Assembly: GCA_964016885.1 (NCBI GenBank)
Contig: OZ024754.1
Coordinates: forward strand, 13,454,001-13,518,000
Direction: 5' to 3'
Source: Eledone cirrhosa
Taxonomy: Eukaryota
Length of the DNA: 64,000 nt
Under the pieces are notes generated by a model, which saw nothing but the letters and a program-made list of their open reading frames with translations, had not been told where the DNA came from and ran no database searches. The position numbers were made by a program, and so were the translations under genes. Positions 31,238 to 32,259 of the stretch are shown one piece after another. Position 1 is the stretch's first letter. Every line of letters begins with the position of its first letter.

Positions 31238-31321
<84 letters not shown>

Positions 31322-31546
31322 AAGAATTTATATCTAGTAACATATATATACATACAAATGCATATCGATGCTAGCAAATATATAGGTTTTGTCTTAATAA
31401 CATTGCGGTTCAATGCATGGGGTTGCAGAACAATAATATAAGAGACGTAAGATAAGAAAATTATAAAATTAACTTACTTACTAAAATATCACTTCCAACT
31501 AATTAGTTTCTGGAATGGAGTAGATACATCTTCCGAATGAGAATTG

Positions 31547-31628
31547 ACTTTCCTGATGACGGGATGTTTCTCTATACCTTCTTCGGAAGATGTATCTACT
31601 CCATTCCAGAAACTAATTAGTTGGAAGT
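31547..31628 (+). ncRNA. Type I hammerhead ribozyme (family D)
   Basis: ACUUUC CUGAUGA CGGGAUG..CUUC-UUCG-GAAG..CAUUCCA GAAA CUAAUUAG UU GGAAGU. Confidence 0.8.
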
Positions 31629-32068
31629 GATATTTTAGTAAGTAAGTTAATTTTATAATTTTCTTATCTTACGTCTCTTATATTATTGTTCTGCAACCCC
31701 ATGCATTGAACCACAATGTTATTAAGACAAAACCTATATATTTGCTGGCATCGATATGCATTTGTATGTATATATATGTTACTAGATACAAATTCTTTAT
31801 TATTATCTCCAAAATATTTGTCGAGCAATACTGGCCATGACTGCTGCTACTGTAGTAGGCTGGCCGCTGTCTTATTAACAACTCACTTTCCACCGATTGA
31901 CCTCGACGTCACGTGTTCGATTCTTTTTGAATTTGCCACGGACACAGAGGCAGTGATTTTCTCAATGGCTAGGAAGTAAGTCCACGCTTTGCTATTTCCT
32001 ATTCACTGATTTATTTTTTAATAAGCTTCCAGTGTCCTCGCTTTGCCTGGAAACTTATATGAGAATTG

Positions 32069-32150
32069 ACTTTCCTGATGACGGGATGTTTCTCTACACC
32101 TTCTTCGGAAGATGTATCTACTCCATTCCAGAAACTAATTAGTTGGAAGT
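32069..32150 (+). ncRNA. Type I hammerhead ribozyme (family D), second tandem copy
   Basis: Near-identical to 31547-31628, 522 nt downstream. Confidence 0.8.
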
Positions 32151-32199
32151 GATATTTTAGTAAGTAAGTTAATTTTATAATTTTCTTATCTTACGTCTC

Positions 32200-32259
<60 letters not shown>

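Follow-up and report, generated by a model that had tools for sequence, protein, structure and literature searches.

The window considered here, meaning the whole 64,000-nt stretch of DNA that was analysed, is microsatellite-rich animal DNA, and the region 31315..32203 within it holds a compact insertion, element D, whose two outer ends both lie in (TA)n. The insertion is built from a partly repeated non-coding unit with two direct repeats (pseudo-LTRs, or pLTRs) and an inverted, shortened copy on the left, and we read it below as the probable product of a Penelope-like element (PLE). Its features are as follows.

31241..31318, no strand: left (TA)n tract, the insertion target (39 copies by TRF), after the 3' end of another hammerhead element, E
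31316..31537, minus: inverted 5'-truncated copy of unit positions 31582-31803 (222 nt, 3 mismatches), carrying the long 3' end ("tail")
31537..31681, plus: first pseudo-LTR (direct repeat 1), beginning 16 nt 5' of the hammerhead core
31547..31628, plus: hammerhead motif 1 (type I), predicted to cleave after 31622 (GUU)
31582..31585, plus: UUCG loop at the tip of helix II, with the inverted arm stopping opposite 31582
31623..32144, plus: 522 nt from cut site to cut site, the predicted monomer; non-coding, with 36% G+C
31682..31803, plus: likely PLE "tail", 122 nt, by which the 3' end of the inverted arm extends beyond that of the forward arm
31804..32058, plus: single-copy inner part of the unit, without coding remnant
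32059..32203, plus: second pseudo-LTR (direct repeat 2), with the short 3' end
32069..32150, plus: hammerhead motif 2 (type I), predicted to cleave after 32144 (GUU)
32201..32258, no strand: right (TA)n tract (TRF)

The direct repeats are 145 nt long, lie 522 nt apart and differ at one position (31575 T / 32097 C). The original prediction had the inverted arm run from 31315 and stop exactly in the UUCG loop; the stop stands, opposite the first U of the loop, and the start has to be moved to 31316, as 31315 and 31804 are unpaired. The 5' end of this arm falls 44-45 nt short of that of the pLTR, and base 31537 is common to the inverted and the forward arm, a microhomology of 1 nt. The forward part comes to 666 nt, or 1.28 units, and runs across both predicted cut sites. 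The left (TA)n tract hides any target-site duplication, and none is visible. Just to the right of the element, at 32407-32580, there is a 174-nt imperfect palindrome (80%), which is either MITE-like or another inverted junction.

The prediction of two near-identical hammerhead motifs with cuts after 31622 and 32144 is borne out by the CTGATGA cores at 31553 and 32075, by the GAAAC-TAATTA-GTT segments that end at 31622 and 32144, and by the single mismatch between the repeats. Motif 1 consists of helix I (31547-52/31623-28, 6 bp), the core (31553-59), GAAA (31609-12) and a palindromic helix III. Helix II is long (a 49-nt region) and is capped in both motifs by C(UUCG)G, as had been proposed, with the loops at 31582-31585 and 32104-32107. 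The inverted copy at 31316..31537 is no ribozyme, since it lacks the CUGAUGA core. Three departures from the usual hammerhead had gone without mention: both motifs have GUU, a slow triplet, at the cleavage site, in contrast to the GUA or AUA of all 17 others among 19 structured motifs in the window; helix II starts with a C.A mismatch; and Rfam returned no hammerhead family, either at gathering across the whole window or at E<=10 across 31300-32220. The hammerheads were thus identified by motif and predicted fold, and the Rfam miRNA matches in 31300-32220 are the inversion hairpin itself. The ribozyme is expected to be weak and would act as a dimer, for which its 12-nt helix III palindrome is suited, or with help from a protein. 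GUU is listed among the cleavable NUH sites (PMC3138052).

The sequence between the motifs is non-coding, in agreement with the original prediction. A Pfam search of the two stop-free frames in the 522-nt unit gave no match. When 56 RT/PLE-like proteins were compared with the unit by tblastn, the best E was 0.048, and no coding remnant emerged. Family D is non-autonomous because its unit contains no ORF. A short intron (GTAAGT at 31976 to CAG at ~32032) was considered and rejected, as the majority variant of the family alters the donor's G and an A. The unit has no homology elsewhere in the 64-kb window and shares only scattered identity with its neighbours K and E, and a search for a 22-nt family D ribozyme motif in metagenome and viral contigs gave 0 matches. 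ACGTCAC motifs, which we take to be CRE-like and a candidate promoter element, occur 80-170 nt 5' of the hammerhead in families D (31906-31917), E (30779-30787) and K (~9350, minus strand). The parts of element D differ from each other by ~1% (arm identity 98.6%, direct repeats 99.3%), which ranks it, like families A, C and F (within-element identity 98-99%), with the youngest elements of the window. The youth claimed for it therefore holds against families B, E and H (81-86%) and does not set it apart from A, C and F.

To view the family beyond this locus, one unit (31682-32203) was compared with 4 of 13 listed public runs, X1, X5, X4 and X11, from 3 studies; the best run contains 0.42 of the sampled words, and the runs may come from another individual or a related species. 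The unit was covered end to end, in 29 of 29 bins, in all four. X1 supplied 1055 contig pieces and X11 3525 reads, with the largest class 90-95% alike; this points to many diverged copies, although copy number cannot be read from depth. All four runs contain the head-to-tail joint 32200/32203->31682, which makes 522 nt the unit of the family and not the outcome of a local deletion. Together with the missing ORF, this upholds the claim of a non-autonomous element with a full 522-nt unit between its motifs. Other copies also run from the short 3' end (~32200) into (TA)n, in 9 contigs of X1 and 2 of X5, and one contig (X5) does so from the long 3' end (31800). The depth of the head-to-tail joint in X5 equals that of record 17 of this run (33.8), a 587-nt contig with 468 nt of the unit at ~87% identity, unlike short pieces elsewhere.

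Several further signals in these runs concern ends and joints. An exit from the unit behind 31714 into other sequence was seen in 433 X11 reads (agreement 0.97) and 2 X1 contigs; the sequence joined there is possibly a sister family or an autonomous partner, and a 20-nt motif from this loose end is absent from the window. Rare joints at 32064->32145 and 31884/32143 (3 reads each) lie at or beside a predicted cut site, and one X1 contig also begins at 32145. These are possible footprints of a cut-RNA template, with tiny counts and with AATT sites as a confounder in the RAD run. We did not accept the piles of X11 read ends at 31930/31933 and 32140, or the drop in depth at 31790, as cleavage sites or termini; they are likely a RAD restriction artefact, given the AATT sites at 31791, 31930 and 32137.

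Variants of the family were also set against the predicted fold. In helix II, majority variants retain two pairs (32085 G.U -> A-U; 32097/32114 C-G -> U-A); a third, 32100/32111, is lost in the majority variant, barring a compensating change that the listing does not show. Record 16 of X4, a contig of the majority type, keeps both UUCG and GUU, and its 3 differences are matched by depth to 32111, 32114 and 32118. Across the whole unit the variants broke 7 pairs of the predicted fold, with 9.4 expected (P=0.16), and so did not significantly favour it; the input was 33 of 40 listed rows out of 143, with 27 retained as majority in X11.

The surroundings of element D are rich in related sequence. 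A search of the window for CTGANGA-N5-35-GAAA cores found 22, compared with 2.6 +/- 1.8 in shuffles, and family D is not among them because its spacer is 49 nt. Six other core pairs face outward across an inversion, and several unrelated hammerhead families also have inverted arms. Between 27920 and 32203, four unrelated hammerhead elements are lined up with (TA)n tracts between them, C (twice), then K, E and D, and this segment is likely a hot spot of successive PLE-type insertions. Element E follows the same plan as D, an inverted arm and then a partial tandem of ~632 nt (30299-31250, plus strand) with its first motif truncated. Family C (27920-28195 and 28617-29075) has two discrete 3' ends ~85 nt apart, one per arm; its long and short ends are swapped between the two insertions, which gives a second case of a long "tail". 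Family A (1449-2169, minus strand), with a hammerhead-to-hammerhead unit of ~420 nt, a folding z of -7.4 and GUA triplets, may be a better retrozyme candidate. Protein-coding remnants are also present. A 5'-truncated PLE-type remnant at 51140-52870 (minus strand) comprises the C-terminal part of an RT and an endonuclease-like end followed by (TA)n, with a hammerhead-like core at 51369; the closest relative of its RT/endonuclease portion (51806-52825) is labelled Octopus vulgaris, at 62% identity, and the window is on this evidence likely cephalopod DNA. There is a GIY-YIG remnant at 20091-20573 (minus strand; Pfam E 4e-5) and an RT fragment at 2-553 (minus strand; RVT_1, E 6e-10). The window further contains a tRNA-like match at the Rfam threshold (4778-4837, minus strand) and a dispersed SINE-like family of about a dozen repeats of 100-190 nt (e.g. 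5411-5597, 22653-22842 and 59617-59806).

Element D is very probably a non-autonomous PLE insertion, made of a non-coding 522-nt repeat with type I hammerhead motifs. It combines a pseudo-LTR tandem, an inverted truncated copy, one hammerhead motif per pLTR and a (TA)n target with the lack of an RT/GIY-YIG ORF; that this whole layout is the standard insertion signature of Penelope-like elements had not been remarked on in the original prediction. In the typical Penelope structure, as published, one of the arms bears a tail, and next to the two direct pLTRs stands an inverted one shortened by 37 bp (PMC3846280). Partial tandems, inverted 5'-truncated copies, a bias for (TA)n and non-autonomous Chlamys PLEs are described as well (PMC8557442). 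Against our reading stands the fact that no autonomous partner with the same pseudo-LTR lies in the window. The helix II pair lost in the majority variant, the lack of an Rfam hammerhead match and of a visible target-site duplication, and a tail longer than published also count against it. The element is recent-looking and well preserved, of an ordinary kind among the parasites of animal genomes, and both its type and each of its structural features have already been published.

The published account of PLE insertion suggests how element D could have arisen. The PLE protein is reported to cut and extend both strands of the target, to use two internal starts that define the "tail", and to work mainly with uncut RNA, the PLE hammerhead needing help from the protein (PMC11167929). 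Element D was likely inserted in trans by the RT/GIY-YIG protein of an autonomous Penelope-like element. That protein would have opened the (TA)n target with a nick in each strand and started two cDNAs from internal sites 122 nt apart (the equivalents of 31803 and 32203). The right-hand cDNA would have reached to 16 nt 5' of the core after copying 1.28 units of its template, an uncut multimer or a circle; the left-hand cDNA would have ended 44 nt short, by chance at the UUCG loop; and the two cDNA 3' ends would then have been joined through the 1-nt microhomology. Since the 666-nt forward part spans both cut sites, the template was an uncut multimer or a circle and not a cut linear monomer, and the data do not tell which of the two was read. 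The 3' ends of the arms differ by 122 nt, compared with a published tail of 30-40 nt (PMC8557442). The short end recurs in 11 contigs and the long end in 1, and two RT starts are a candidate source of this tail.

An alternative for the inverted arm dispenses with the second RT start: a cDNA that ended at 31538 would have folded back, primed itself at 31582, copied 222 nt and joined (TA)n. A published proposal explains PLE inverted junctions that have palindromes by self-priming (PMC3846280), both 3' ends of element D lie at TA-like microhomologies, and the tail exceeds the published length, its long end recurring in a single contig. On the other hand, that contig does show the 31800 end followed by (TA)n in another copy, family C has an equal pair of long and short ends in 2 of 2 insertions, and the junction homology is only 1 nt. 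We consider such a fold-back unlikely, and it would alter just one step of the insertion in trans set out above. Far less probable still is an origin of the whole layout by local deletion or decay, in which an autonomous PLE lost its coding body and the 522-nt spacing is private to this locus. The reads and contigs that leave the unit behind 31714 would fit a sister element with a different body, but the full coverage of the unit and its head-to-tail joint in all four runs, along with the absence of a coding remnant, largely refute it. Inverted repeats beside microsatellites are difficult to assemble, and the exact inversion joint is listed in none of the four runs, as would be the case if the inversion were a fold-back chimera of the assembly. 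However, the arms are unequal, differ at 3 sites and enclose a 44-nt unique spacer, the flanks are not mirrored, and at 31789 and 31747 the inverted arm has the family-majority base where the forward arm does not. An assembly artefact is therefore extremely improbable.

A special meaning of the break at the UUCG loop is not supported. The stop there is likely due to chance, because 59 of the 666 positions lie in predicted hairpin loops and the loop was picked after the fact; a published Penelope copy likewise has an inverted pLTR shorter than its direct one, by 37 bp, as described in PMC3846280. In elements E and I, too, an arm starts inside helix II. No strand-change joint at the loop is listed in any of the four runs, a comparison of low power, as contigs break at palindromes and RAD sampling is uneven.

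Whether this copy can yield the 522-nt RNA depends, in the predicted folds, on where its transcript begins. The cost of folding ribozyme 1 is ~6 kcal/mol for a start at 31538 and 11 at 31530, and it rises to 27 at 31520 and to ~75 for starts at or before 31450, which include the inverted arm. Element D could thus release a 522-nt RNA only if transcription started no more than ~10 nt upstream of helix I, that is, at the left edge of the pseudo-LTR; an earlier start would leave ribozyme 1 trapped by the inverted arm. The strong claim that this copy actively makes a 522-nt monomer or circRNA, and that its UUCG hairpin stops or redirects RT, draws on the two complete motifs 522 nt apart, on a transcript from 31538 that escapes the inverted arm, on a folding penalty for the isolated motif of 3.9 kcal/mol (mid-range among 10 other motifs in the window, at 2.4-7.9), and on a unit that folds better than its shuffles (z of -5.2 as a circle; -4.3 sense and -2.0 antisense as linear RNA). 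Yet 2 of 14 control tiles fold as low or lower, and transcripts that bear the arm pay the high costs given above. The GUU triplet and the C.A mismatch also count against it, as do the G at 31563/32085 of this copy, which closes a core-trapping hairpin that the family-majority A would not close, and the lack of a joint at the UUCG loop in the 4 runs. Among tested Xenopus dimers, 1 of 9 cleaved in the results reported in a preprint (bioRxiv 10.64898/2026.07.22.740005). Taken in this strong form, the claim is distinctly improbable.

By analogy with other animal retrozymes, family D may form 522-nt circles. A broader version of this idea, which we hold to be doubtful, makes family D a circRNA-forming retrozyme with an unusual GUU hammerhead whose genomic copies record the whole PLE-driven cycle. 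The cycle that would be recorded, in an equally doubtful reconstruction, comprises two RT starts 122 nt apart, copying of a circle for more than one unit, and joints from cut-RNA templates. If true, it would be direct structural evidence for PLE mobilisation of animal retrozymes, with many families stacked in (TA)n in a cephalopod-like genome. Our literature search found no paper on cephalopod retrozymes and gave just Craig 2021, a paper on non-autonomous LTR elements, and one on a squid genome; for the squid genome, a count of 235 hammerhead loci is given (PMC6962438).

Element D shares its main features with the PLE insertions described for Pen2a_Av (PMC3846280), for Naiad/Neptune/Chlamys (PMC8557442) and for PAc (PMC11167929): two direct pLTRs that carry a hammerhead, a single arm with a tail (a candidate one in D), a shorter inverted pLTR on the 5' side and a (TA)n target without a visible target-site duplication. 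It differs from the insertions described there in having no ORF between its pLTRs, where 377 nt are non-coding, and in the length of its tail (122 versus 30-40 nt). The non-autonomous Chlamys PLEs (such as MRC1) and the host sequences of Adineta vaga that are framed by pLTRs and were moved in trans belong to another lineage than D. Hammerheads located in pLTRs, of low activity and with a helix III of the dimer type, have been reported, as have pairs on opposite strands at distances of 100-700 bp (PMC4209133). The minimal and atypical metazoan PLE hammerheads of that report and axolotl HHR_Amex2 (PMC7229834) resemble those of element D in having a long helix II, a small palindromic helix III suited to dimers, and either an additional base following A9 or a mismatched pair at the foot of helix II. 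In contrast to the motifs described in these sources, the mismatch of element D is C.A rather than U.U, G12 is preceded by an additional A when read in the PLE-type register, and position 17 is U.

The other known systems that resemble family D are the animal non-LTR retrozymes, described as short tandem units with type I hammerheads that make circles (Cervera & de la Pena 2020, PMC7229834). Like element D, they have a short non-coding head-to-tail unit with one type I hammerhead each, are low in G+C (36% in D, within their stated range of <50%) and co-occur with PLEs; they are also self-paired, as the unit of D may be. They form arrays, whereas element D is a partial tandem of 1.28 units with an inverted arm (TRF found none, although its period limit of 500 could not have shown it), and D differs further in its GUU triplet and its long, UUCG-capped helix II. 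Since its 522-nt unit exceeds the 150-450 bp given for retrozymes (PMC7229834), we file family D as a retrozyme-like non-autonomous PLE, akin to the "non-LTR retrozymes" of animals. Mobilisation of animal retrozymes by PLEs was proposed in 2020 (PMC7229834), and a recent preprint argues on phylogenetic grounds that retrozymes are non-autonomous PLEs (Li, Clavereau & Pollet 2026, bioRxiv 10.64898/2026.07.22.740005). To these accounts element D adds a clean case, of modest significance, in which a retrozyme-sized unit bears the full insertion signature of a Penelope-like element.
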